A stretch of 64,000 nt of DNA from a virus, in UHGV virus genome UHGV-1370141, one strand, 5' to 3'. Below the pieces are notes generated by a model, which did no database searches, had not been told where the DNA came from, and saw only the letters and a list, made by a program, of their open reading frames with translations. This document shows positions 7,475 through 63,025 of the stretch, one piece after another. The first letter of the stretch is position 1, and each line of letters begins with the position of its first letter. Made by a program: the position numbers and the translations under genes.

Positions 7475-8515
7475 TTATACTGCGACGGGGGCCGCAATAT
7501 GTGGATGAGCTTGATAACCAACTAATTCGAAGTCTTCGTATTTGTAATCGAAGATAGAATCCGGTTTACGTTTGATAACCAGTTTAGGTAACGGGTAAGG
7601 CTCACGTGTAAGTTGAAGTTTTGCTTGTTCCAGATGGTTAGAATACAGATGAACGTCTACACCACTATAAACCAACTCGTCTGGAACCATGTTCAGTTGT
7701 TGAGCAACGATGTATGTTAACAACGCGTACGAAGCGATGTTGAACGGTAAACCTAAGAATACGTCGTTTGATCGCATCAGGAAGAAACACGAAAGCTTAC
7801 GACGCGGAATACCTTCACGATCTAAAGTTTCATGAAGTCGTTCTTCATCATCAATATCTTCGTGTTTAATAAGCGGTGCGCTCGCAAATTTTTCCGGTTC
7901 GTTTACTTCGTACCATTCCAGTCTCTCAAGCAGTGACATTTCCGTTGTGTAGAATTGGAAGTAGTTGTGACACGGGTTAAGTGCCATATCGTCCAAGTCA
8001 CTTACGTTCCAGGCACTAACAATAATACGGCGGGAGTCAGGGTCTTCGAGAAGTTGTTGGATAACTTTGCTGATCTGGTCGTGAGATTTGCGATAAATAA
8101 CGATACTTTCTTCAGGGTTGTCCTTTGCAATAGTACCAACGTAGCGATAGCCTCGTTCTCTCAATACGTCTTTACTACGCTCGTCCCAAAGATAAACCAG
8201 TTTGGTATCCATCCATTCCCGCCACTGGTGTCCGTAGACAGGTCCTAATTCCCCTTCCGCATTCGCCCACTCGTTCCAGATTCTTACCCCATTCTCTTGC
8301 AGGTACTTCACGTTAGTGTCACCGTTCAAGAACCATAACAGTTCATGAATGATACTTTTCAGGTGAACCTTTTTCGTAGTAACTAATGGGAAACCTTCTT
8401 TCAGGTCAAAACGTAGTTGGCGACCAAATACAGAAAGTGTCCCTACACCTGTACGGTCTTTCTTAACAACGCCGTTATCCAGAATGTCTTGCATTAACGC
8501 TAAATACTGTTTCAT
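7475..8515 (-). CDS. thyA: Thymidylate synthase (ThyA type) with two insertions
   Basis: Near-identical blocks to E. coli ThyA: [87 protein letters not shown]. 346 aa versus 264 aa. Confidence 0.93.
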
Positions 8516-8823
8516 TAGATTTTGTCCTTTTCGAGTTCAGTTAAAATTTCAAATAGGTCTGCGTTGGATTGCAGTACGACTTCACTGCCTTCTGCTACAA
8601 CGGTAATTGAAGGCTTCTTACCACGTAGCAAGAACTCCCAACGCATTGTTCTTACGTGGCTGTCGAGTAACTGCTTTAATTTGTGGTTAACTTCGACTTC
8701 CAATTTGCCCAGTAACTGTGGTGTAATAGCTTCGCCTGAGTTTTTGTTATAAAGCGTACGCACTAAAGAACGTAAAGAATAGCCAATGCATTGCGAAATT
8801 GCCCAACCCGAATAGTTTTCCAT
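8515..8823 (-). CDS. Hypothetical protein (102 aa)
   Basis: ORF whose stop overlaps the thyA start (TAATG-type junction). Confidence 0.4.
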
Positions 8824-8824
8824 G

Positions 8825-9370
8825 TTAATCCTTCAAAATGTCTTTAAGCTTTAGTTTTGTATAGAACGGAGAACCGCTTAGTTCTTCTGTCCAACTTATA
8901 CGTCCGTTCTGTAGAACCCGGTCGAAGATTAGGCCGTACATCTTTACAATTCTGGCCAATTGATAAAAGAGCGTCGTGAGGTGTAACCGACGCTCCATTT
9001 GTGCACGGGCGGTACAACTGCGCACCGCTTTGATAGCAAGTACCGCTTCTGGCATCAACGTAAGCGCGATTGACTCAGGATGTTCATTTTTCCATTTCTT
9101 AATGGCTAGTAGTCGGTGTAAAGATTTTTCAAGGGGACGTAAATCCCCGTTATTCATCACGTAAACCAAAGCAGCAATATCCCACAAGGCAATACCTACT
9201 GCTTTAGCAACAAACAACCCGTCCTGTGTTGTCGTGGACTCACAGACTTTGCCAATACTTCCGTAAACACGTGCAGTCCATGCGTCTGTCTGTTCGCCAG
9301 GTTTTATACCCGCGTTATCCAGAAAGTGTTTAAACGCATTAACATGATCAGTTAACTGTATTTGTTTCAT
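8825..9370 (-). CDS. Hypothetical protein (181 aa)
   Basis: ORF tightly packed with neighbours on - strand. Confidence 0.4.
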   Translation of the reverse strand: MKQIQLTDHVNAFKHFLDNAGIKPGEQTDAWTARVYGSIGKVCESTTTQDGLFVAKAVGIALWDIAALVYVMNNGDLRPLEKSLHRLLAIKKWKNEHPESIALTLMPEAVLAIKAVRSCTARAQMERRLHLTTLFYQLARIVKMYGLIFDRVLQNGRISWTEELSGSPFYTKLKLKDILKD

Positions 9371-9384
9371 TTCCGATACCCGAT

Positions 9385-9849
9385 TTAGTCACGAGACTTT
9401 ATTTTAAGGTACGCAACCGCAGCTCCCATGATTGCAATACCGGCACCCCAACCTATCCTTTCTATTACACTCATATCGTCCCATCTTTTCTCTTCGTTAC
9501 GTCGTTTGGCCTCGTCTGCCCGTTCTCTCCACATCGCTTCGCGTTCCAGACAGCTGGGATTTATTTCCTCTTCACAACGACGTTTCCGTTCTTCTTCCCC
9601 AATCAGTTCTTCTAAATAGAGTCTCGTTTCTTCCACAGCTTGCTCATAGACGTCTATGCGATCGGGAAGAATTCTCCTGTGAGAGGCTTTGTTGCGAACG
9701 GAAGCAATCATGTGGAGTTTCCGTTCGTATTTTGGTTCGAGAAGATAGGCTATGCTTTTGGTCTTCTCATGAAGTCCACGACCAGTACCGCCGAGTTTTT
9801 CCACAAGTTCTTCTACAGAAATTGCAAGATCGAGAATATATCCACGCAT
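9385..9849 (-). CDS. Hypothetical protein with R-x4-H (HEPN-like) motif, charged coiled-coil region and C-terminal TM anchor
   Basis: Start moved to internal Met (MRGYILDL) to avoid overlap with the upstream gene; motif ASVRNKASHR; C-terminal IGWGAGIAIMGAAVAYL hydrophobic helix. Confidence 0.35.
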   Translation of the reverse strand: MRGYILDLAISVEELVEKLGGTGRGLHEKTKSIAYLLEPKYERKLHMIASVRNKASHRRILPDRIDVYEQAVEETRLYLEELIGEEERKRRCEEEINPSCLEREAMWRERADEAKRRNEEKRWDDMSVIERIGWGAGIAIMGAAVAYLKIKSRD

Positions 9850-9909
9850 AATTGTTTCTCCGCTTAAACGCAGTCTTGGGAGACATAAGTTTGTTCCCAA
9901 CTGTAAAAA

Positions 9910-10278
9910 TCATTTCAACAAAACAAGATGAATTTGGTATTCGTCATCCGCAGGAGAAGAATAGTCGCCGGTTTCAGGAAACGATAAATCCCCTAGTAGA
10001 CTGTGGAAGGATAATCCGTGTACAGCTTCAACTTTTCGTACAAGCGGAAAACCTGTTCTTTTAATCCAATTGTAATCGACAAACAAAACACCACCAGGAC
10101 TTCCCGAACCTGACCACACGCGAATGTCCACAGTCTTTCCTGAGAAGTTGGCAAGTACAGTGCGCAGTCCTAATAGCACATAACGGGGGAAGGGTACTTC
10201 AATAACTTGTTTTGGTAAAACAAATTCAGGGAATTTAAAACCGAAACCGTTGGGGGTATTAAAAAATTGAGCTTGCAT
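9910..10278 (-). CDS. Hypothetical protein (122 aa)
   Basis: ORF in - block; first gene after an upstream terminator. Confidence 0.35.
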   Translation of the reverse strand: MQAQFFNTPNGFGFKFPEFVLPKQVIEVPFPRYVLLGLRTVLANFSGKTVDIRVWSGSGSPGGVLFVDYNWIKRTGFPLVRKVEAVHGLSFHSLLGDLSFPETGDYSSPADDEYQIHLVLLK

Positions 10279-10295: not shown

Positions 10296-10336
10296 GTAAA
10301 AAATAAAAATACCCTACTCCCAGACAGGAGTAGGGT
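10296..10336 (-). terminator. Rho-independent terminator (CCCTACTCC-cagaca-GGAGTAGGG plus T-tract on - strand)
   Basis: Inverted repeat followed, on the - strand, by a U-run (plus-strand AAAAATAAAAAT); immediately after the stop of 10342..11001. Confidence 0.5.
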
Positions 10337-10341
10337 AGGTG

Positions 10342-11001
10342 TTACATACGGGTAACTGAATCCCAGTAATCACGAAGATATTCTTGGTCTTCAGGATCTT
10401 TTGGCGTAGCCGGAATATGGCCGTCAAACTCAAACGGAATCACGGACAACACATCCGCAATCTCGTAACGCTCGACTTCCAGTTCAACTTTCACCCAGTC
10501 ACCAACGCTGGTGCTACTACGCATCTCGGTGATAAGATCGTTAAAGTCACCTGAAACTTCAATGGCAGGGTGTCCGGTGGTGATTGTGAAAATATCAATA
10601 TCCCAATGCTTAGCCCCTTTATCGGCTAATTCACCCGGCTCTAAGTGAATACGTTTCACCAGGTGTGCCAAATAACCGTCTTTGTAAAAAGAGAGTGCGG
10701 AACTAATCCCGATATCCGAATTCTCTTCAACCTTTCCGTCCAGGAATTTACGCTTAAGCGTTAGCTGTGCCGTTCCGTCTTCTTTAATACGGATACGACG
10801 ACGCCCACCTTCTATCGGCATGAGAATGTCCATGAACATCTTGGCTTCTTGTGCGTGGAGCCAATCCCATCCCGCTTGCGTCGGTTTTACCCAAACGCAG
10901 TATTCCTTTTCGACTTCGTGTTTAATGGACTCACCAGCAACACGAATGATTTCTTCTTCCTGCGCTTTATCCAGCCGCGCTAGGGTATCGAACAATCCCA
11001 T
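10342..11001 (-). CDS. CYTH-like (triphosphate tunnel) domain candidate
   Basis: N-terminal EVEKEY resembles the CYTH ExExK start; RRRIRIK and LTLKRK basic strands; VELEVERYEI acidic strand. Low confidence. Confidence 0.3.
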   Translation of the reverse strand: MGLFDTLARLDKAQEEEIIRVAGESIKHEVEKEYCVWVKPTQAGWDWLHAQEAKMFMDILMPIEGGRRRIRIKEDGTAQLTLKRKFLDGKVEENSDIGISSALSFYKDGYLAHLVKRIHLEPGELADKGAKHWDIDIFTITTGHPAIEVSGDFNDLITEMRSSTSVGDWVKVELEVERYEIADVLSVIPFEFDGHIPATPKDPEDQEYLRDYWDSVTRM

Positions 11002-47985: not shown

Positions 47986-50900
47986 ATGGCTGTCGTCCTA
48001 GACCCACACTTCAAAGAACCGGGGAATAAAATAACCGGTGAAGCGGTCGCCGTCATTGGTACGAAGTACCGAATGTTGGTACCTGCCCACGCCCCTTTTT
48101 TCACCACATCCCTGGTGGTCAAGAGCGGCGGCAAAATACTGACCTTAGGCGACGATTACGTTATTACACACCCGTACGAGACCGGTATGTTGCGCACAGC
48201 CTATCTCGTGCACGGGATGATTTGGATTGTTAACGACAAATACAAATCGAATTTCACGGTAGATTACCACGCCGTAGGTTGCGGTGAGGCAACCCAAGAA
48301 CAGATTACCGCAGAACGCGAACTCAATAAAGATAAATACCCGTCTGCGTGTCAATGGGATACCGTTATCGGCGACGTTTACTTTCCACCGGTCGACATTC
48401 AGTTCGACTGGGAAAACTGGAAAGGTGAACTGGAATTAATGCAGACCATTGCAGGCTTAGGTGATTCGTTAGGTAACGTGGTGAATCGGGTAGACCCGAT
48501 TGCACGTAACACGTTAGATATCGAGCATCGCGCTAATGGTACGGTTAGCACGTCTGAACAGTACGCAACGTACGACAACAAAGGTGGGTATACTTACAAT
48601 ACCGCTAAACGTCGTTTCTCCGTTACGTACAAAACCACCACGTTAAATGAATATTCCCTGTCGATGAAATACCGTATTCCGGCTATTTTTCCGAATATGG
48701 GGAGTATTAATCCGAACGAACAAATCGATTGGATGTTGTGCTATGCGAATGGTGGCGCAAGTATCCTTCGTCTCCAATTAAAACAACGTAAAATCAGCCT
48801 ACGACTGACGGTCGCGTTAGGCAGTGGTTCGACCGATTATGATTATACGTTAATCAACGGTTTGACCGATGACGAATTAAAAGGCGAATTAACGTTTAGC
48901 GTTGTCCGTCAACCGGGTAACGGTGTATACGTTATCGAGGTGACGACTAACAAACAGTCCATGGACTATACGTTTAACGTCGACACACCGCCAGACGAAT
49001 TCTCAGCAGGTTACAGCAAAACGGATGTTGCGAAGTGGCTGAAATACAAAACCAACGTTAACTTAAACTGGTGGGCGGCTGAAAACGATTACGCTCAATT
49101 CCTTGCGTTACCTGGTGCGCCAGAAGCAGACGTAAGTAACGACGTTTATCAGTTAATCGTTAAGTACCATCAGTTAGTAGAGCAACTCTATCGCAACGCA
49201 CCTGCACACGAACACGTTACACGTAAGGACAACCCGCACAGCGACACGTGGGGACCGATTCGTGCGTTAGAATTAAACGGCATTGCGTCCGACGCAGCGT
49301 TAACCTACGGGAAAACCAAGCGACAGTTAACGGACTACGTTAACGCTAAATACCCAACACAGGCAACGCTAACCACCCAGAGAAAACTGCTTCGAGAATC
49401 GGCGAGCAAGAACGTTAACGGCACGATTACAGCGCTCCCTGGCTTTACGTCATTTACTACTGAAGTCGACCCAGTGTCGATGTCGAAATACGTTAGTCGG
49501 CAATTTAGCGAATATTACGTTTCGAACGGAATTGGATACCACGGAGCACTTCGCTACGCTGGAACTAAAAACGGGTTCTCATGTTATTTTAACGGTGTTC
49601 CCGCTGATTTACAAGACATCGACTTTATTGTAACGGGTACAAGAGTTGCAGGCGATAATTCAGCGATCGGCGTGGCTCAGATGCGATTCTACGAGAATCC
49701 GGGTACCGAGTCCGGTAAGTATGTTGAGCTGGAAGGTTCGCTCTCCGGAGATCGCCTTTCCATCCAAGTATCGCTTGGCGGATATGGTGTCGGTACAGAC
49801 CCACAAGTCCGTTATATCTCCAAAGCACCTGATCCGGTGGTGCCTGCTGGCGATTTCACATTACGTTTCCAGATGAAACGAACCGGTAATCTTTTTGACG
49901 TTATCGTTACGGTGAACGGGAAAACCTACAGTGCGCGTGTCAATTTCGTCAATATGGATGCCGAGTTAGAAGCGCTGGAAAACCGTTATCACTTCAAGAG
50001 CTTTATTAATAACGTTGCAGATAGGGTCAGTATCCAATCTGCTCACAACAGAAACTACGTTACCATCAAAAAGGCTCCTGACGTTGTTGACGAAAGACGT
50101 TTAGGCGCTCAATTCGTTGTTGATCCGAAGTCCATTAAGTTTATCGGTCAAGGTTCTACCGATGTTCATGCGGGTAACAACCCTGTTACGTTACAGGCAG
50201 GCGATAACCAGCTTGTGCTATACCCCGATGACCGTGGACTGTTGTGGCGTGGTAAGAAACTCTTAGACCCCACTACGGTAGCGCCGTATTTGCCGGGTAA
50301 TACCGCAGGCGGTACAGGTCTGTTCTACGGTGCATCTACAGCTACAGTGGAACTTACTGGTAGCGGGATTAAAGCATCGCCGTTTGTCGCAACGTTTATC
50401 CTTCCGGTTGCCGAAGACGTCACGACGTTAGCCTGCTGGCAGTTAACGGATGAATTCGGTACGGCTGAAAACCTTGCAGCTACACCCGCGTTAATTGAAA
50501 AACTGGACGCAGAGTTTACCGGTAAGTTAGTTGCTGCCAAGTCGTACATCAACGACATGCAGCTTACCAGTTCGATTACTATCGACAAAATTACCTTTGG
50601 TTTAGGTAACGTTGCGAATACCCCGGACCTCGATTTGCCGATTTCTGTTGCACAACAGACTGAGTTAGACAAATACTCACCGAAGGTTCACCAACACCCG
50701 TCTTCTGTGTTCGGTGTTGAAAACGCAGACACCACGAAACGGGGTCTGATTAAATTCGGTCTGGAAGTGGATGATACCACTTTAGCACTCGATGGTAGTG
50801 TGGTGATGGCGCAGACTTCCCAGATTGAAAATTTGGAGAATACCGTCGGCGGGGTTGACTCGGGTGCGCGCGTTGACATTATTCGCTTTGGTAAGTCCGG

Positions 50901-52311
50901 TAACGACTTAATTGACGTTACGGTTAAAGACAATATCCTGGTGTCACTTCCTGCTTCCACGTATTTCGTTGGCGGCGAAACGTACGACGTGCCGTTGATG
51001 ACGGTTAACGTTACCGAACGTTTCCCGAACCCGAAAACAGTAATTTACGCAGGGATTTTTGTTGATATCGTTGACAACAAAGCGAAGTACATTATCCACG
51101 ACAGCTATAACCAAGCTGAGACGGATACCATGACGCGTGTGGGAAGACTCGTTGTTAATGATCTTTCCGAAGTGGATGTAGTGGAGTTGCGTAACGTGAC
51201 ACGGTTAGGCGATTTCCGTGAGCTGAAAGACCACGTCGCCAATGACAACGCACACATTCACCGCTCCGCGTCACGTGCAGTGCTGGGGTTAAGCAATTTA
51301 ACAGTAGGTGCGCCCTGCTGGGCTTCTGGACTTCAAGCGGTTGTGCGTGGCGAGGCAGATTGGCGCTATGTGGTTGGTGGTGGATATAAAGCACTCGATG
51401 GTGTGAAATACGACCAGCTTGCGTCGAAGTGGGTGTTTGATGCGAAAGGGGTAAGTGATAATGTTCACGGGTTTATCCACAACCTGTTCCCAGTATTTAA
51501 CAATGCGGGGATGCGAGTCAGTTGGGAAACCGAAAGCAACGCAAAAACCGGTACGGTGCTAGAAACCATCCTGGGTTGCTGGAAAAACACCGATGGCGAG
51601 TTTATGCGGTTGTCGTTACTTATCACCCGTGGTTACCGGTTAACTGACAGTAACGGTGAATATTGTTACGCGGGGTTCGGTTTGAACTTCAGTAACGGGA
51701 AATCGGTAGTGTTAGGTTTCACGCCAACGAAACGTGTTACAGCTGCACCATGGAGCACATTACAACCTGACGTAACGTTTAGTCACACCCGTGGTGCAAA
51801 CAACGCAATAACGTTTAATGCAACACTGACCTTAGCTGGTACTGCGTATACCATTGTGGTGTATTTGTCTGCGACGGATAAATACGTAAGCTGTACAGCA
51901 GCAGGGGGAACTACGCAGAAAATCTCACTGAGTGACCGTTTAACCGGGTTCAACCTCGCACCTATCGTTAACGATCCGTATACCCCTATTTACTACGGAT
52001 TAGGGGGACTTTATGAGGACGAAGTGCGTGCTAATATCCGTTCTACGGCAGACAGCATAATCGGGAACAAACTCTACGGTACGCTGTTGGATTATATCAG
52101 CAACTACTCCTCGTTAAATCGTGTACGCGTCGTGGAATTGGCCGGGACAAGCTCAGACCCTGAAACGCTTAATGCGCTAGTGGCGACTGAGTTTAATAAC
52201 AACCTGGCGGATTACGCTGCGTTACCGATACCTCCTTATCTTAACAAGGAGCGCGTAATGTCGTTTATCGACACCAACAATTTAGTGCAGGCGGTAATCA
52301 TTCGCGATTAA
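47986..52311 (+). CDS. Tail fibre/tailspike-like receptor-binding protein 1 (1441 aa)
   Basis: AGGAG SD; N-terminal anchor motif PAHAPFFTTSLVV...LGDDYVIT shared with the next three genes; very large T/N/G/V-rich beta-type protein. Confidence 0.6.
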   Translation: MAVVLDPHFKEPGNKITGEAVAVIGTKYRMLVPAHAPFFTTSLVVKSGGKILTLGDDYVITHPYETGMLRTAYLVHGMIWIVNDKYKSNFTVDYHAVGCGEATQEQITAERELNKDKYPSACQWDTVIGDVYFPPVDIQFDWENWKGELELMQTIAGLGDSLGNVVNRVDPIARNTLDIEHRANGTVSTSEQYATYDNKGGYTYNTAKRRFSVTYKTTTLNEYSLSMKYRIPAIFPNMGSINPNEQIDWMLCYANGGASILRLQLKQRKISLRLTVALGSGSTDYDYTLINGLTDDELKGELTFSVVRQPGNGVYVIEVTTNKQSMDYTFNVDTPPDEFSAGYSKTDVAKWLKYKTNVNLNWWAAENDYAQFLALPGAPEADVSNDVYQLIVKYHQLVEQLYRNAPAHEHVTRKDNPHSDTWGPIRALELNGIASDAALTYGKTKRQLTDYVNAKYPTQATLTTQRKLLRESASKNVNGTITALPGFTSFTTEVDPVSMSKYVSRQFSEYYVSNGIGYHGALRYAGTKNGFSCYFNGVPADLQDIDFIVTGTRVAGDNSAIGVAQMRFYENPGTESGKYVELEGSLSGDRLSIQVSLGGYGVGTDPQVRYISKAPDPVVPAGDFTLRFQMKRTGNLFDVIVTVNGKTYSARVNFVNMDAELEALENRYHFKSFINNVADRVSIQSAHNRNYVTIKKAPDVVDERRLGAQFVVDPKSIKFIGQGSTDVHAGNNPVTLQAGDNQLVLYPDDRGLLWRGKKLLDPTTVAPYLPGNTAGGTGLFYGASTATVELTGSGIKASPFVATFILPVAEDVTTLACWQLTDEFGTAENLAATPALIEKLDAEFTGKLVAAKSYINDMQLTSSITIDKITFGLGNVANTPDLDLPISVAQQTELDKYSPKVHQHPSSVFGVENADTTKRGLIKFGLEVDDTTLALDGSVVMAQTSQIENLENTVGGVDSGARVDIIRFGKSGNDLIDVTVKDNILVSLPASTYFVGGETYDVPLMTVNVTERFPNPKTVIYAGIFVDIVDNKAKYIIHDSYNQAETDTMTRVGRLVVNDLSEVDVVELRNVTRLGDFRELKDHVANDNAHIHRSASRAVLGLSNLTVGAPCWASGLQAVVRGEADWRYVVGGGYKALDGVKYDQLASKWVFDAKGVSDNVHGFIHNLFPVFNNAGMRVSWETESNAKTGTVLETILGCWKNTDGEFMRLSLLITRGYRLTDSNGEYCYAGFGLNFSNGKSVVLGFTPTKRVTAAPWSTLQPDVTFSHTRGANNAITFNATLTLAGTAYTIVVYLSATDKYVSCTAAGGTTQKISLSDRLTGFNLAPIVNDPYTPIYYGLGGLYEDEVRANIRSTADSIIGNKLYGTLLDYISNYSSLNRVRVVELAGTSSDPETLNALVATEFNNNLADYAALPIPPYLNKERVMSFIDTNNLVQAVIIRD

Positions 52312-52321
52312 GGAGAATTTT

Positions 52322-55300
52322 TTGATGAAAGCGTATCCTTACGATCCTCGGGGGACGAAAACCGAGAATCACTTCTTAGAGGAGCGTATCATCGGGTCAG
52401 AAAACAACAACGACCGGGTGGTGATTTTAGACCATCGCCCGTTCTTTGAAGACTTAGTCGTCAGACAACCAGGTTCAACCACCCCACTGAGCCGTGGGGT
52501 GGACTACGAACTGCAATATCAGCTGACGGAACTGGATGACTCGGTAGCAGCCAACGTGTATTGTGGGGTACACCTTATCAACCCATCCATTAAAGGTATT
52601 GTAACCTTTGAAGGACAAATGCTCGGCGGTACGTTCTACGACCCGTTCGTTGACATGCTCGACGAGTTGGTGAAATATTTGAATAACCCAGTCAGTGCAG
52701 ACTGGCTGTTGTTAGACGGTAGACCGTCATTATACCCAGCTACGCCTGCGGCAACGTCCTGGGCGGATTTGCTGAACAAAAAATACTTAGCGTCAGCGAT
52801 TCACGATATTGAGTTGAAAACCGATGACGCTAACCAGCTAATTAAAGATAAATTAGCCGAAGTTAAAGCGCTAGTGACTGCGTTGGGGAAAGAAATTGAA
52901 GCGTTTAACTACCCAGCACATATCGCCGCGACGAACCCGCACGAAACCACGAGCGCACAAATTAACGCCCATCCCGTTAACCTGAAAACACCTGACACCT
53001 TTATGGCGTACGGGTTAAAGTTGAAAGCGTTAACGGATGAACTGAAAGCGTTTCGTTTACCACAGTCAGTTATTGACACGTATATCTCCCACTGGATTTC
53101 TTCGGAAGTACGGGGCGTGTTTAACTGTACGGTGTCTGGAAACCGCGCACAATTCCGTTCGAAAAACGGTGAGTCAGAAATCATTTTTGCGAATGATGGC
53201 TTTACGTTAAAATCCAACGGTTCTGTGGTATTAGCGGTAGGGCATCTGGAAGGCACAGGTGCGGGGCGTTACATTAACTGGCGTGCGGGTAAAAACACGT
53301 TACGCATCGAGTCAACCGGTGACGCTTTAGGGATGAACAAACTCACCCTGAACGGTAACCCGTTGTTGACCACCACAGCGCTGATGGAGTATCAGCAAGA
53401 CCCTGATGCTGGCGGGAGTGGCGGTAGCGATCCTGATGACTCCAAAGTGTATATCGAAGGCCGTAACGGGATTAGTTTTACCGGTAAAGGTTCTCGTGCC
53501 GATCCCATCGTGGGGACTATCGACCCGACGAAAGCGACCACCGCTGAAAAAGGTGTTGTTAAGCTTAAAACCGGTAAAGGCACAGAAACGGTTGGGGTTG
53601 CTGCAACACCTGCGTCATTAACGCCGTATTCAACCGACTTATCAGGGTACGTGACTAAAACGACCATGATTAACGGTAAGCCGATGAACGACGGTTCCAG
53701 GACAATCACGAAAGCTGACCTGGGATTAGGGCAAGCGGATAACACCGCAGACCTTGACAAACCGTTGTCTACTGCACTGAATGCTTCGGTTAGTGGTTTA
53801 GCAGATGTTGGCCACCATCACGACTGGTCAGAGTTAGGCATTTATAAAGCCTCGCAGACGGTTTACGGTATCGGTCGTTACGCAACTAACCAGAATGGCT
53901 TAGTTGAAAACCGTGCAGTGGTACCGAACATCCTAAAAGAGCTTTCAGCACGTTTAGATGTGGTTGCTGCCGCAATTGCGAATGCGAAAGAAGGTACGGT
54001 AACTGATTTTGCTGCTGTGAAAGGTGCAGACTGGCGTTTTAATAGCCAGGGTACGGCAATCTCCGTTCAGGATTTGAAATATTTCTATTTGCTAAATGGT
54101 GAAAAGGCCGACGGTGTCGTTACCGGCGCGATTGACCTGCAAACCACCCCGATGTTTAACTGGTTCTCACCGAACAACCAGCTTGAGCTGACTTGGCCTA
54201 CGGGGAAAGTTAGTAGGGGTACTGGGATTAGTTGGGATGGAATTGTTGATCCTCCAACAATGGGGTTTCAGTCAGTTCCGGTAGGTAAAACCGCTATACA
54301 GATGGGTGACCAGTCAGTTGTTACGGTGCTGGCAAAAACACGGGTCAAAGCTTATCAGAATAGGCTGTTTGTTTACGCCGCTGGCGGTGGAATGATAACC
54401 GTTTATGTAAATGGTGTTGTGGCTGCTACCGGTGAATCTCCGTTGTTAATGAACTACACAACGTCGTCAGATGTTGAAAATTACACAATCGCTGTTAAAG
54501 CAGAATGTAGCGATACGGCTAAGTCCGCAGCGGTACAGTTTGAAGTTTACGATGGCGATTACCCTGTTTACTTCAGTGGCCCTGAAACACACGTAGAGCT
54601 TCTCCAGGAGTTTGTTACCACGCACGTAGGGATTCGTCACTATTTGTACGTTAACATGCTCACAGGCTCTCTATATTCGCGTGCTGAACCGATTCAGAGC
54701 ATCGCAGTTGATCCTGAACGTGGTTATATCGGTTACGTTGATATTGTTGCTGGTGAGAATTACGCGAATAAAACGGTAGGGTTCGAAACCACGTTTGATT
54801 TCGGGAAAAGTGCCGAGGTTAGTGAACACATCGACACGCGTAAAGCGCACGGACTCAGTTCTGTGGACTGGGCGTTAACGGATAACCCACGTTTGCCGTT
54901 ATTAAACCGTGCTATTGCCGAACCGAGAGCGTGTATCTTTAGGAAAGCGTTAGCAACCGGTACAGGCGATGTTTTCCATCTTGTCAGTCGTGGTCTTTAT
55001 ACTTACGCACACAACCAAAACGTGAAGTCCAGTCTTCAGTACGTTGTGATTCCTGAAGGTGCTACACCGTATTGCTGGTTTACACCGTTTAACCCGAAAG
55101 AAAACAACGCACCGACTTTCGAAGGTTCGTTTGCGTTTGACGTTGACGACGTCGGTGGGACGCAAGCCCTTGCTGCTGCGCCGGATTTGGTTCTATGCTC
55201 GTCAACGCAAGGGAGTAGCGTTAAACGTCGCTATCTGCGCATTGACCTAACTGCCAAAGCGTGTAAGCTGGGGATTGGTTCCCGTTCAGATTCTGCCGTT

Positions 55301-56506
55301 ACTGACATTCCGTTGGTAATGGAGGAGTCTGGGGAAACAGCGGTGAATGCAACGTTTAAGGACGTTTTGTTCAACGGTGAAGAAACGAATGCTGCGATTC
55401 TCGATTTGATTGGCTGGGGTGCCGCCCGAGATAAAATCTCTGCAAACCATGCACCTCGTGGGATGATTCGTTACCGTTATAACGTAAGTACGCGTGTGTT
55501 ACGTTTAGCGTTGTCGTTCTCGCAGTTTGGGACGACGACAGTTAAACAACGTCAGTTGGAAATTCAATTCCCGTTCGACTTAGTGGATTATTTCACCGGT
55601 GACGGAATAGGATTATCGTTTAAAGAACTGAGCGCGAAATGCCGAGTAACGATTAGCCATGCGTTGATTGATCCGGTTACGAACAACATCGACATTGATA
55701 AGTATCATTACTTACGTTCGTTGTTTGAGTCGTATTTGGATTCATCCGTTGGGTATTTGGCTGATAACAAAGACGCTGATTATAGTCAGTCTGTGATTGA
55801 CCCTGCGACTTATGAGATTAGTCAAAAATACCGTGCCACGGAGAGCATTGCCTTGCCAACTGGTCAGGGAAGTGTTGCGGTTTCTCACGATGGGCAGTTA
55901 CCTGCGCAGTTCTTTGACCGTAAACTGTCTCGTGGTGCGTTGATGGCGAAGAACAACGAACTGCACACTTCCTGGAACAATGTGTGGAGTACGACTAAGG
56001 TTGCTGCAAGTCGTTATCGTCACAAACTCATTCTCCGTTTTGCACAAGGTGTTGATAAACAGCAATACCGAGTTGCAAAAGTGACGGGAACGATAAAAAG
56101 TAACTGGCCAGGTAAAGTGATTATCGGCGACGCTGGGAAAGACCCATTCTTAGCGTCTACCGATAGCGCAGAGTTTGCTCTGTCAACCAGTTCTGATGCT
56201 GGTAAAGCGATTAGTATCACTGCCACTGACTTACGCGTGGGTCAGGACATCTATATTGTCTTAGACCCGCCAGGTAATAATCCAGAAGGTTATGAACTTA
56301 ACTTTACCTGTTCGTTAGACGTGACTGATGAGCAAAGCACTCGTCAGGATCAGCTTAATGCGCAGAGCTTCGAACTGCGTAGCGGTGAAAAGCAGTTCTT
56401 AATGGAGAAACGCAATCCGTACCATATCACGAGTAAAGCGTGGAAATGGATACTTTCTGTACTGAAACGAGAACTTAACGGGAAGCAGTTAGGGGATCGT
56501 ACTTAG
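52322..56506 (+). CDS. Tail fibre/tailspike-like receptor-binding protein 2 (1394 aa)
   Basis: GGAG SD; N-terminal HRPFFEDLVV...RGVDYELQ; GGSGGS linker; TAEKGVVKLKTGKG...TETVGVAATPASL repeat flavour seen in fibre proteins. Confidence 0.6.
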   Translation: MMKAYPYDPRGTKTENHFLEERIIGSENNNDRVVILDHRPFFEDLVVRQPGSTTPLSRGVDYELQYQLTELDDSVAANVYCGVHLINPSIKGIVTFEGQMLGGTFYDPFVDMLDELVKYLNNPVSADWLLLDGRPSLYPATPAATSWADLLNKKYLASAIHDIELKTDDANQLIKDKLAEVKALVTALGKEIEAFNYPAHIAATNPHETTSAQINAHPVNLKTPDTFMAYGLKLKALTDELKAFRLPQSVIDTYISHWISSEVRGVFNCTVSGNRAQFRSKNGESEIIFANDGFTLKSNGSVVLAVGHLEGTGAGRYINWRAGKNTLRIESTGDALGMNKLTLNGNPLLTTTALMEYQQDPDAGGSGGSDPDDSKVYIEGRNGISFTGKGSRADPIVGTIDPTKATTAEKGVVKLKTGKGTETVGVAATPASLTPYSTDLSGYVTKTTMINGKPMNDGSRTITKADLGLGQADNTADLDKPLSTALNASVSGLADVGHHHDWSELGIYKASQTVYGIGRYATNQNGLVENRAVVPNILKELSARLDVVAAAIANAKEGTVTDFAAVKGADWRFNSQGTAISVQDLKYFYLLNGEKADGVVTGAIDLQTTPMFNWFSPNNQLELTWPTGKVSRGTGISWDGIVDPPTMGFQSVPVGKTAIQMGDQSVVTVLAKTRVKAYQNRLFVYAAGGGMITVYVNGVVAATGESPLLMNYTTSSDVENYTIAVKAECSDTAKSAAVQFEVYDGDYPVYFSGPETHVELLQEFVTTHVGIRHYLYVNMLTGSLYSRAEPIQSIAVDPERGYIGYVDIVAGENYANKTVGFETTFDFGKSAEVSEHIDTRKAHGLSSVDWALTDNPRLPLLNRAIAEPRACIFRKALATGTGDVFHLVSRGLYTYAHNQNVKSSLQYVVIPEGATPYCWFTPFNPKENNAPTFEGSFAFDVDDVGGTQALAAAPDLVLCSSTQGSSVKRRYLRIDLTAKACKLGIGSRSDSAVTDIPLVMEESGETAVNATFKDVLFNGEETNAAILDLIGWGAARDKISANHAPRGMIRYRYNVSTRVLRLALSFSQFGTTTVKQRQLEIQFPFDLVDYFTGDGIGLSFKELSAKCRVTISHALIDPVTNNIDIDKYHYLRSLFESYLDSSVGYLADNKDADYSQSVIDPATYEISQKYRATESIALPTGQGSVAVSHDGQLPAQFFDRKLSRGALMAKNNELHTSWNNVWSTTKVAASRYRHKLILRFAQGVDKQQYRVAKVTGTIKSNWPGKVIIGDAGKDPFLASTDSAEFALSTSSDAGKAISITATDLRVGQDIYIVLDPPGNNPEGYELNFTCSLDVTDEQSTRQDQLNAQSFELRSGEKQFLMEKRNPYHITSKAWKWILSVLKRELNGKQLGDRT

Positions 56507-61819: not shown

Positions 61820-63025
61820 GTGGCCATGGCCTCCATTGTTTATCAATATCCTTTAGATTTAACGGGCTCGCTAACGTCTAACGCTGTGGAGCGTCAGATT
61901 ACGTTAGGTACAGGTAAAGTAAACCGTGCTTTTGCTTTTCCTGACGGCCCGTTCTTTGCGGACACGTTCCGTTTACGTGTTGCTAACCGACCGGATGCAA
62001 CCTACGAACGTGGTACCGATTATGAGTTGATTTTTGCACACCCGACTTATGAAAAGCTGACTAAAAACCGCGAGATTGTTATGGCGGTGGTGGTCACTAA
62101 CACAGCGATTCCAACAGATATTACGGTATCTGCGCAGGTCGTTGGTGGACCACAGTCTGCGAACATCGTGGCTATCGAACAGGCGATTGCTGAATTAAAC
62201 CTCGATAACCGTACGGTTGCGTTTAAAGACCTGCGTAACGTACCAGATACATTCCCTTCTGCACCGACGTATAAAGACGTAGGTGACATCTACGGTTTTG
62301 AATATATCATTACCGTATTGGCGGGTATTAAAGATGCGATCAGTTCCGGTGACGCAGTACAGTTAGAGAACATTAAAGCGATTTTAGAAAGCCTGAAAAA
62401 TGACTTCTTAGACGCTTTAAATGCACACATTAACGCAACCGGTAACGTTCACCATCTTGATATTCATCAGGTTAACGGGTTAACAGAAACTGAAATCCGT
62501 GCGCTTATTCGTGACGTCCAGTCTGCCATCGACGCAACGATTACGGAAATCAATGCACTGAAGAAAGCGGACGAAGCTTTAGGTAAACGTATTGACGCTG
62601 TTGTCAACTCTCTGGAAGCGTGGAACGACCAACTTAACGTGGTTGCTCAAAACTACCAGAAAATGGCCTTAGCGTTGGCGAACCTGAACTCGTTAGTGTT
62701 ACAGCTGCAAAAGAGCATTAACGATCTGAACACGAAACTGAATCAGGTTATTCAGCGTGTTGATGCGTTAGAGCAACAGGGTCAAGAAACCGATCAGAAA
62801 ATCGATCAGCTACAACAAAACCTGGATGCGCTTAAACAGCAGGTTAACAATAACACGAACGCAATCAGTCAAGCGAACCAGAACCTACAAAACCACATTG
62901 CGGCAGATGACCCGCACACCGGTTATCTCCACAAGAGATACGGTGGTGTGGTTCAGGCCCCAGTACACGTTAACGCTAACCTGACGTCTCGTGATGACGT
63001 ACAGGCGGAAGCGGGTACGAAATAA
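61820..63025 (+). CDS. Fibrous protein 4 (401 aa) with shared N-terminal anchor and long coiled coil
   Basis: N-terminal FPDGPFFADTFRLRV...RGTDYELIF; residues about 230-350 are heptad-rich (LEAWNDQLNVVAQNYQKMALALANLNSLVLQLQKSINDLNTKLNQVIQRVDALEQQ). Confidence 0.55.
   Translation: MAMASIVYQYPLDLTGSLTSNAVERQITLGTGKVNRAFAFPDGPFFADTFRLRVANRPDATYERGTDYELIFAHPTYEKLTKNREIVMAVVVTNTAIPTDITVSAQVVGGPQSANIVAIEQAIAELNLDNRTVAFKDLRNVPDTFPSAPTYKDVGDIYGFEYIITVLAGIKDAISSGDAVQLENIKAILESLKNDFLDALNAHINATGNVHHLDIHQVNGLTETEIRALIRDVQSAIDATITEINALKKADEALGKRIDAVVNSLEAWNDQLNVVAQNYQKMALALANLNSLVLQLQKSINDLNTKLNQVIQRVDALEQQGQETDQKIDQLQQNLDALKQQVNNNTNAISQANQNLQNHIAADDPHTGYLHKRYGGVVQAPVHVNANLTSRDDVQAEAGTK

Follow-up and report, generated by a model that had tools for sequence, protein, structure and literature searches.

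A predicted membrane-anchored HEPN-like protein encoded in a variable slot of a Seoul-like jumbo phage lineage

The gene at 9385–9849 (minus strand) of the window, the 64,000-nucleotide stretch of the viral genome UHGV-1370141 that was analysed, encodes a small protein whose N-terminal domain can be placed in the HEPN superfamily (Pfam clan CL0291), nearest to its DUF4145-like branch, and is followed by a charged linker and a predicted C-terminal membrane anchor. With moderate confidence, we read the product as a membrane-tethered, probably dimeric HEPN endoribonuclease whose accessory gene serves in conflict. Neither HEPN domains nor DUF4145 are new, and HEPN nucleases associated with membranes had been proposed before; what is new is a sizeable, uncurated family in which a minimal HEPN domain is combined with one predicted C-terminal anchor and has no partner, the presence of this family in a jumbo phage, and its restriction there to a persistent, assembly-derived lineage.

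Many systems of immunity and toxicity, Cas13, Csm6, HepT, RAZR, HepS and Tha among them, have a HEPN nuclease as their effector, and the central question for each of these nucleases is how it is kept harmless until needed. The family described here suggests a simple solution, unstudied in bacteria, in which a HEPN domain of ~90 residues is held at the membrane by one C-terminal helix and has no partner gene. The jumbo-phage lineage carrying the gene persists in clinical isolates of Salmonella, E. coli, Shigella and Enterobacter while its lytic relatives do not have the gene, which is thus a candidate factor for phage–phage competition or for the carrier state.

The gene and its phage context

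The longest open-reading frame at this position (9385–9900, minus strand) begins with a TTG codon and would encode 171 amino acids. This version was ruled out by the position of the ribosome-binding site, a Shine-Dalgarno-like GGAG read from the sequence at 9858–9861 (minus strand) and separated by an 8-nt spacer from the ATG at 9849, and by the N-termini of the homologues, which start with MR in all 57 clusters and likewise in the PGAP-annotated orthologue in NZ_CP173450.1. On these grounds the product has 154 residues, encoded by 465 nt including the stop codon at 9385–9387. The initial annotation had also moved the start to an internal methionine, correctly, while its length of 155 residues had counted the stop codon. 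A scan for sigma-70 promoters found none. Among five phage copies, codons 1–82 gave dN/dS values of 0–0.3 (dS 0.07–0.18, dN 0–0.044), indicating purifying selection, and 9385–9849 is a real, constrained gene.

The window comes from a Seoul-like jumbo phage related to SPN3US, Asesino and phiEaH2, and open-reading frames in it match PHROGs for jumbo-phage virion proteins, a UvsX-like protein, RNase H and SbcC; no tRNA genes were found in it. A close isolate was not present in the phage collection, where no match exceeded 76% identity, and this over only some 10% of 24 kb. The gene itself was absent by tblastn from 50,697 phage records, and megablast of the gene with 2.5 kb of its surroundings against 50,697 phage records returned no match. 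In IMG/VR, it was found on three contigs only, all from the same phage clade. The 57 homologue clusters lie nearly all on Salmonella, Shigella and E. coli assembly contigs of ~222–226 kb or on fragments of these, and copies ~96% identical to the window over a 2.5-kb test region have been deposited for E. coli and Enterobacter ludwigii as circular ‘plasmids’ of 222 kb (NZ_CP173450.1 and NZ_CP134650.1). Seoul-like persistent jumbo phages have been reported to persist in bacterial isolates and to encode chimallin (bioRxiv 10.1101/2024.12.31.630880), and the element fits this published ‘persistent virulent phage’ lineage (bioRxiv 10.1101/2024.12.31.630880).

Within the window, the gene sits between a gp041-like gene (10342–11001), whose product is 57–59% identical to gp041, and a gp038-like gene (8825–9370), in a same-strand run of nucleotide-metabolism genes that includes a MazG-like gene and thyA. 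The same interval in SPN3US holds gp040 and gp039. A derivation of the gene from gp039 by divergence was considered and rejected, as the two have no similarity and differ in composition. Related lytic isolates, among them SPN3US, Asesino and phiEaH2, do not have the gene, which is an accessory, clade-restricted gene in a variable slot. Two features of the flanks were observed in passing. The open-reading frames at 8515–8823 and 8825–9370 (minus strand) match the C-terminal (201–298) and N-terminal (31–163) parts of phrog_10269, respectively, and since this PHROG corresponds to the single 289-aa gp038 of SPN3US, the gp038-like gene is either split or interrupted by a frameshift or stop. A strong terminator-like hairpin with a 12-bp stem and a T-run lies at 10310–10337 (minus strand), just downstream of the gp041-like gene; its position upstream of the next two genes suggests a transcription-unit boundary.

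The first of these two genes, a 122-aa open-reading frame at 9910–10278 (minus strand), adjoins the HEPN-like gene on its upstream side and has the same clade restriction. Neither Pfam nor PHROGs gave a match to it, tblastn against phage isolates found nothing, and homologues are confined to the same contigs of ~223–226 kb, where the two genes always form an adjacent, clade-specific cassette between conserved flanks. In length and termini the 122-aa product resembles SPN3US gp040, with no significant similarity between them, and it may be a partner of the HEPN-like protein or a diverged gp040.

The HEPN-like domain and its conserved R-x4-H motif

A motif of the type R-x4-H within ASVRNKASHR had first drawn attention to the protein, and this sequence was located at residues 49–58, with R52 encoded at 9694–9696 and H57 at 9679–9681. 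As a pattern it is of little value, since at least one match to R-x4-6-H occurred in 68% of 20,000 shuffles of the protein (mean 1.04 matches), which rules out that the motif is statistically meaningful by itself; the stricter pattern R[NDH]x3-5H was present in 8% of 20,000 shuffles. The motif gains weight only from conservation and structure. Within the phage clade, V51, R52, N53, K54 and H57 are invariant, and among the 147 distant representatives listed the arginine is found in 143 of 145 aligned sequences, the following asparagine in 144 of 145 and the histidine in all 145. The family consensus reads LExLL..GAxGRGLHEKxxS...KLRxIAxxRNKxxHE. Residue 58 is an arginine in the phage protein, where 126 of the 147 relatives have a glutamate or aspartate.

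The placement of the motif also follows that of known HEPN proteins, in which R-x4-6-H lies where helix 3 ends and a polar residue (N, D or H) comes directly after the arginine (PMC3710099). The domain, residues 1–92 (9574–9849, minus strand), was predicted by AlphaFold2 (AF2) to form helices at 2–18, 26–32, 39–57 and 65–91, and R52-N53-x3-H57 occupies the C-terminal end of the third of these, so that R52-N53-K54-A55-S56-H57 (9679–9696, minus strand) is the predicted catalytic motif. A full-length AF2 model based on a phage-clade alignment had a pLDDT of about 90 for residues 1–90 and low confidence beyond, and a model of the domain alone, built from a 50-sequence family alignment, was a compact helical bundle with a pLDDT of 96.1 and a pTM of 0.84. 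Like HEPN domains, which often have an insert between helices 2 and 3, it is a four-helix up-down bundle; its helix 2 is only ~7 residues long, and given this short helix the modelled domain is best described as a minimal, atypical HEPN. When the model was compared with the PDB using Foldseek, the nine best matches were all HepT/SO_3166 toxins (best E 0.11, probability 0.97), with generic helical bundles interleaved among the structural matches. The E-values of these structural matches are weak, which is to be expected of a helical domain of 90 residues. In BFVD, one confident viral match was found, which is unnamed.

Sequence comparisons point to the same superfamily at low scores. The only Pfam match of the phage protein is DUF4145, at 12.8 bits (E 0.13) for the full-length protein and 14.5 bits (E 0.036) for the domain alone, values that lie below the gathering threshold of 23.1 bits; the alignment is in register, pairing residues 11–62 with profile positions 21–75 of 88 and covering the motif. 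DUF4145 (PF13643) is an accepted HEPN family, recorded as fused to transmembrane segments and as present in dsDNA viruses. No curated threshold was passed in Pfam, NCBIfam, PHROGs or PADLOC, and searches of PHROGs, NCBIfam and the PADLOC-DB v2 defence models returned nothing for the query, with no PADLOC family at E ≤ 1. A search of PDB sequences with the phage-clade profile gave a chance match only. The relatives were more informative. When 50 family domains were scanned against Pfam at E ≤ 1, DUF4145 was matched by 26 of them, HEPN_RiboL-PSP by 10, HepT-like, HEPN_Apea and HEPN_Swt1 by six each, HEPN_Cthe2314 by three, Abi_2 by two and Csm6_HEPN by one, unrelated Pfam families making up a minority of the weak matches. 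Among 81 full-length members, nine Pfam matches at E ≤ 1e-3 fell in HEPN families, the best at 5.5e-7. Relatives scanned against PADLOC matched PD-T7-4/RAZR and the HEPN parts of Cas13b and Csm6, in each case weakly and below threshold. Formally, the protein falls within no curated family. The HEPN-like reading of the initial annotation is nevertheless upheld by the fold, by the placement and conservation of the motif and by the weak matches to HEPN families: the two tests on which it had been made to depend, a HEPN fold and R/H residues conserved in homologues, gave the AF2 bundle of residues 1–92 with its nine HepT matches in Foldseek and an R-N-H triad that is essentially invariant.

Whether such a domain would cut RNA is a separate matter. 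It is rather improbable, in our estimate, that the protein is a catalytically silent HEPN-fold module serving as a membrane-tethered adaptor or sensor that binds RNA, nucleotides or protein. Several HEPN families are indeed non-catalytic binding domains (PMC3710099), and the minimal size of the present domain, its very short helix 2 and the replacement by arginine, in the phage clade, of the acidic residue that typically follows the histidine would all suit a protein of this kind. On the other hand, non-catalytic HEPN domains characteristically lose R-x4-6-H (PMC3710099), and the near-absolute retention of R, N and H across distant relatives therefore argues for catalysis.

The linker, the predicted anchor and the wider bacterial family

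Between the domain and the C-terminus, residues 83–127 (9469–9603, minus strand) form a charged linker, 60% D/E/K/R, that was predicted by AF2 to be helical at low confidence. The phage-clade proteins are in-frame length variants of 136, 154, 175, 180, 182, 186 and 191 aa in which the N-terminal 82 residues are nearly fixed and the linker varies in both length and sequence. The linker is polymorphic through in-frame replacements and indels, between a domain and an anchor that hardly change, and the length of this spacer thus appears free to vary. The predicted anchor (residues 132–148; 9406–9456, minus strand) is followed by the tail KIKSRD (9388–9405) and rests on hydrophobicity and conservation. 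The hydrophobic segment, IGWGAGIAIMGAAVAYLKI (residues 132–150), is uncharged and rich in glycine and alanine, with small-xxx-small spacing, and its residues G137, I138, A139 and I140 (GIAI) do not vary within the phage clade. On the Kyte-Doolittle scale the segment is borderline, with a highest 19-residue mean of 1.54, under the cut-off of 1.6 used for the relatives, and AF2 confidence is low for the anchor. The highly charged segment and the C-terminal hydrophobic helix of the initial annotation were thus both recovered, the latter as a single predicted helix that is conserved among relatives.

When relatives were scanned for transmembrane segments (Kyte-Doolittle, 19 residues, cut-off 1.6), 108 of the 147 distant representatives listed had a hydrophobic segment, in most cases on the C-terminal side of the domain, and so did 67 of 78 genomic members, whose modal form is a protein of 112–150 aa with one such segment. 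A predicted membrane tether is therefore a family trait, present by sequence in about 73–86% of relatives. A few relatives have several transmembrane segments or carry PG-binding domains, and the latter suggest an orientation with the N-terminal domain in the cytoplasm and the C-terminus outside.

With its small size, single hydrophobic helix, charged helical stretch and basic tail at the C-terminus, the phage protein might also be a lysis-related or structural membrane protein, such as a holin, antiholin or spanin-like protein, whose R-x4-H is incidental, as the chance expectation for the motif by itself would allow. We regard this as very improbable and as the least likely of the alternatives, since the conserved, soluble N-terminal domain also occurs in hundreds of proteins encoded on bacterial chromosomes, away from any phage or lysis setting, and the variable part of the protein is the linker rather than that domain. 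The locus, too, is unlike a lysis cassette: when the ten flanking open-reading frames were scanned against Pfam and PHROGs, none matched an endolysin, holin or spanin, the neighbours being MazG-like, thyA and unknowns, and the protein itself matches no lysis family.

The bacterial family to which the domain belongs is widespread and unnamed and has no curated model. A profile of the N-terminal domain searched against 1.84 billion representative proteins retrieved 342 relatives at E ≤ 1e-3, counted as representative clusters at 50% identity. Two conserved family patterns confirmed 255 loci in a one-genome-per-species collection, most of them in Planctomycetota, where the family is abundant, and others in Cloacimonadota, Verrucomicrobiota, Vibrio, Acinetobacter and further groups; the same patterns gave no confirmed relative of the broad family in IMG/VR. 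One family member carries a double zinc ribbon. Relatives nearer to the phage protein are found on mobile DNA. The closest outside the phage clade (P0058) is 56% identical and comes from a 3.6-kb, Rop-carrying, ColE1-like contig of E. coli (L003), and another of 138 aa (P0063) is encoded in a prophage (CP026674.1; L020), where its gene is flanked by those for tail assembly and portal and runs on the opposite strand, in a moron-like arrangement.

Chromosomal neighbourhoods are conserved within lineages only, and feature genes for a MoxR-type ATPase, YhhN, MarC, MatE, an acyltransferase and GH43. Clustering of the neighbours of 78 genomic loci gave only such lineage-specific synteny, and a conserved partner gene was accordingly rejected. 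No regulator, antitoxin or trigger was found, and the neighbourhoods of the family showed no shared partner, antitoxin or defence-island signature. In one Thermoguttaceae variant (L004, L007 and L008), the member lies two genes upstream of RtcB and always just downstream of a MoxR-type AAA ATPase. A link to the RNA ligase RtcB would have been attractive because HEPN cuts leave cyclic-phosphate ends; it was dismissed on finding RtcB absent from the sister variants (L009 and L014).

Proposed activity and comparison with known systems

Taken together, these features suggest a small bitopic inner-membrane protein with a cytoplasmic N-terminal minimal HEPN domain of about 85–90 residues, joined by a charged helical spacer of variable length to an anchoring transmembrane helix, rich in glycine and alanine, at the C-terminus. 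If it resembles the HEPN enzymes that have been characterised, a composite active site would arise where two such domains come together and contribute their R52-N53...H57 motifs, a pairing that might be aided by the long helix 4, by the spacer and by the glycine-rich anchor. By analogy with HepT, HepS, RAZR and other HEPN enzymes, the active form should be a dimer or a larger oligomer and should cleave RNA, here beside the membrane, in a metal-independent reaction; the cuts would leave 2′,3′-cyclic phosphate ends. The phage presumably took the gene from the large, mostly chromosomal bacterial family and carries it in the variable slot, where its likeliest use would be in conflict, either restricting competing phages and mobile elements or controlling RNA in phage-carrying cells. 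What we infer from these comparisons is how the protein lies in the membrane, that it dimerises and cuts RNA, and what its substrate and biological role may be, and the phage-specific role is the weakest step. A conflict role is favoured by the accessory position of the gene, its absence from lytic relatives and the precedents for solo HEPN proteins in prophages (HepS and Tha); the chromosomal contexts of the family, which look like housekeeping rather than defence islands, weaken it. The initial annotation had also suggested a toxin-like or defence-interfering factor; nothing among the findings points specifically to defence interference.

The same structural evidence would serve for an RNase directed at the host, one that cuts host RNA (tRNA or membrane-proximal mRNA) and slows or reprogrammes the cell during lytic growth or in the carrier state, with no part in competition. 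Such a host-takeover or persistence function would suit both the reported persistence of Seoul-like jumbo phages in bacterial isolates and a position among nucleotide-metabolism genes. We consider it unlikely, as the lack of the gene in SPN3US, Asesino, phiEaH2 and others indicates that the basic cycle of infection does not require it.

Among known systems, HepT/MntA provides the best structural matches, and the membership of HEPN toxins in toxin–antitoxin systems raises the further alternative of an addiction toxin, in which a stable membrane-bound nuclease would be paired with a labile neutraliser, possibly the 122-aa product, and post-segregational killing would keep the extrachromosomal phage genome in the cell. 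The constant adjacency of the two clade-restricted genes between their gp041-like and gp038-like flanks would fit this arrangement, as would the deposition of the element as a circular 222-kb plasmid. The details fit less well, and this reading seems to us distinctly unlikely. A scan of the neighbours against Pfam and PHROGs found no adjacent nucleotidyltransferase antitoxin, and the 122-aa product has neither that nor another recognisable domain; its likeness to gp040 in length and termini means that its gene may instead be a core gene that has diverged. Elsewhere, members of the family lack a conserved neighbour. The HepT signature R-x4-H-x-Y, with its AMPylated tyrosine, is absent from the phage protein, where H57 is followed by R-R, and HepT has no membrane anchor, unlike the phage protein with its predicted one.

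Two further HEPN nucleases bear on the proposed RNase activity. RAZR shows that a DUF4145 domain can be an active, R/H-dependent RNase, and one relative of the phage protein matches the PD-T7-4 (RAZR) model over the DUF4145 region. The catalytic residues of RAZR, R146 and H154, are spaced more widely than the R-x4-H seen here, and in contrast to the RAZR/DUF4145 branch the phage protein has no zinc-finger domain and has a predicted C-terminal membrane anchor. HepS, the ‘HEPN solo’ anticodon nuclease of the Gifsy-1 prophage, is likewise a single-gene HEPN-type protein from a Salmonella phage. Its IRNKYAH and the VRNKASH of the phage protein have R-N-K-x-x-H in common, and a broad-profile search of the PDB aligned the two motifs amid coiled-coil noise, at an E-value of 0.25 that is not significant. 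The active site of HepS consists of R100 and H105, N101 contacts tRNA in a docking model, and an H105A variant was used for the trigger-bound structure. HepS differs in being a soluble tetramer of about 212 residues that is activated by a siphophage tail-tip protein, whereas the phage protein is shorter and predicted to be membrane-anchored.

The idea of a HEPN nuclease at the membrane has precedents in both bacteria and eukaryotes. Anantharaman et al. (2013) predicted inner-membrane proteins whose HEPN domains lie in the cytoplasm and would degrade RNA at the membrane (PMC3710099), and one of their groups has, in a planctomycete, an N-terminal HEPN domain followed by two transmembrane helices and a Zn-ribbon (PMC3710099). 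The modal form described here is simpler than that group (PMC3710099), consisting of the domain and a single C-terminal transmembrane segment in 112–150 aa, and no phage member was described among the membrane-associated HEPN proteins of that study (PMC3710099). The KEN domains of Ire1 and RNase L embody the same concept of a membrane-held HEPN nuclease that is activated by pairing (PMC3710099); they offer an analogy only, being circularly permuted, kinase-coupled and eukaryotic and having no detectable sequence relation to the present family. A 224-genome survey of jumbo-phage conflict systems makes no mention of such a gene, and, judged by title and abstract, none of the papers listed in the literature searches describes one in a jumbo phage.

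A spatial variant of the conflict reading, which we hold to be quite unlikely, draws on the presumably nucleus-forming character of the phage. An inner-membrane HEPN RNase would destroy RNA at the cell periphery, and the transcripts of the phage itself, exported from a central nucleus-like compartment, would be spared by distance; the targets could include transcripts of superinfecting phages. Early transcription in Chimalliviridae takes place in membrane vesicles. If true, this variant would amount to a spatially organised discrimination between self and non-self by an RNase, and the same logic would extend to the mini-HEPN/TM family in Planctomycetota, Vibrio and other bacteria.

Elsewhere in the window, very large open-reading frames at 47986–52311, 52322–56506 and 61820–63025 (plus strand) match the virion-structural PHROGs phrog_2163, phrog_7557 and phrog_8078 in common and form a paralogous family.
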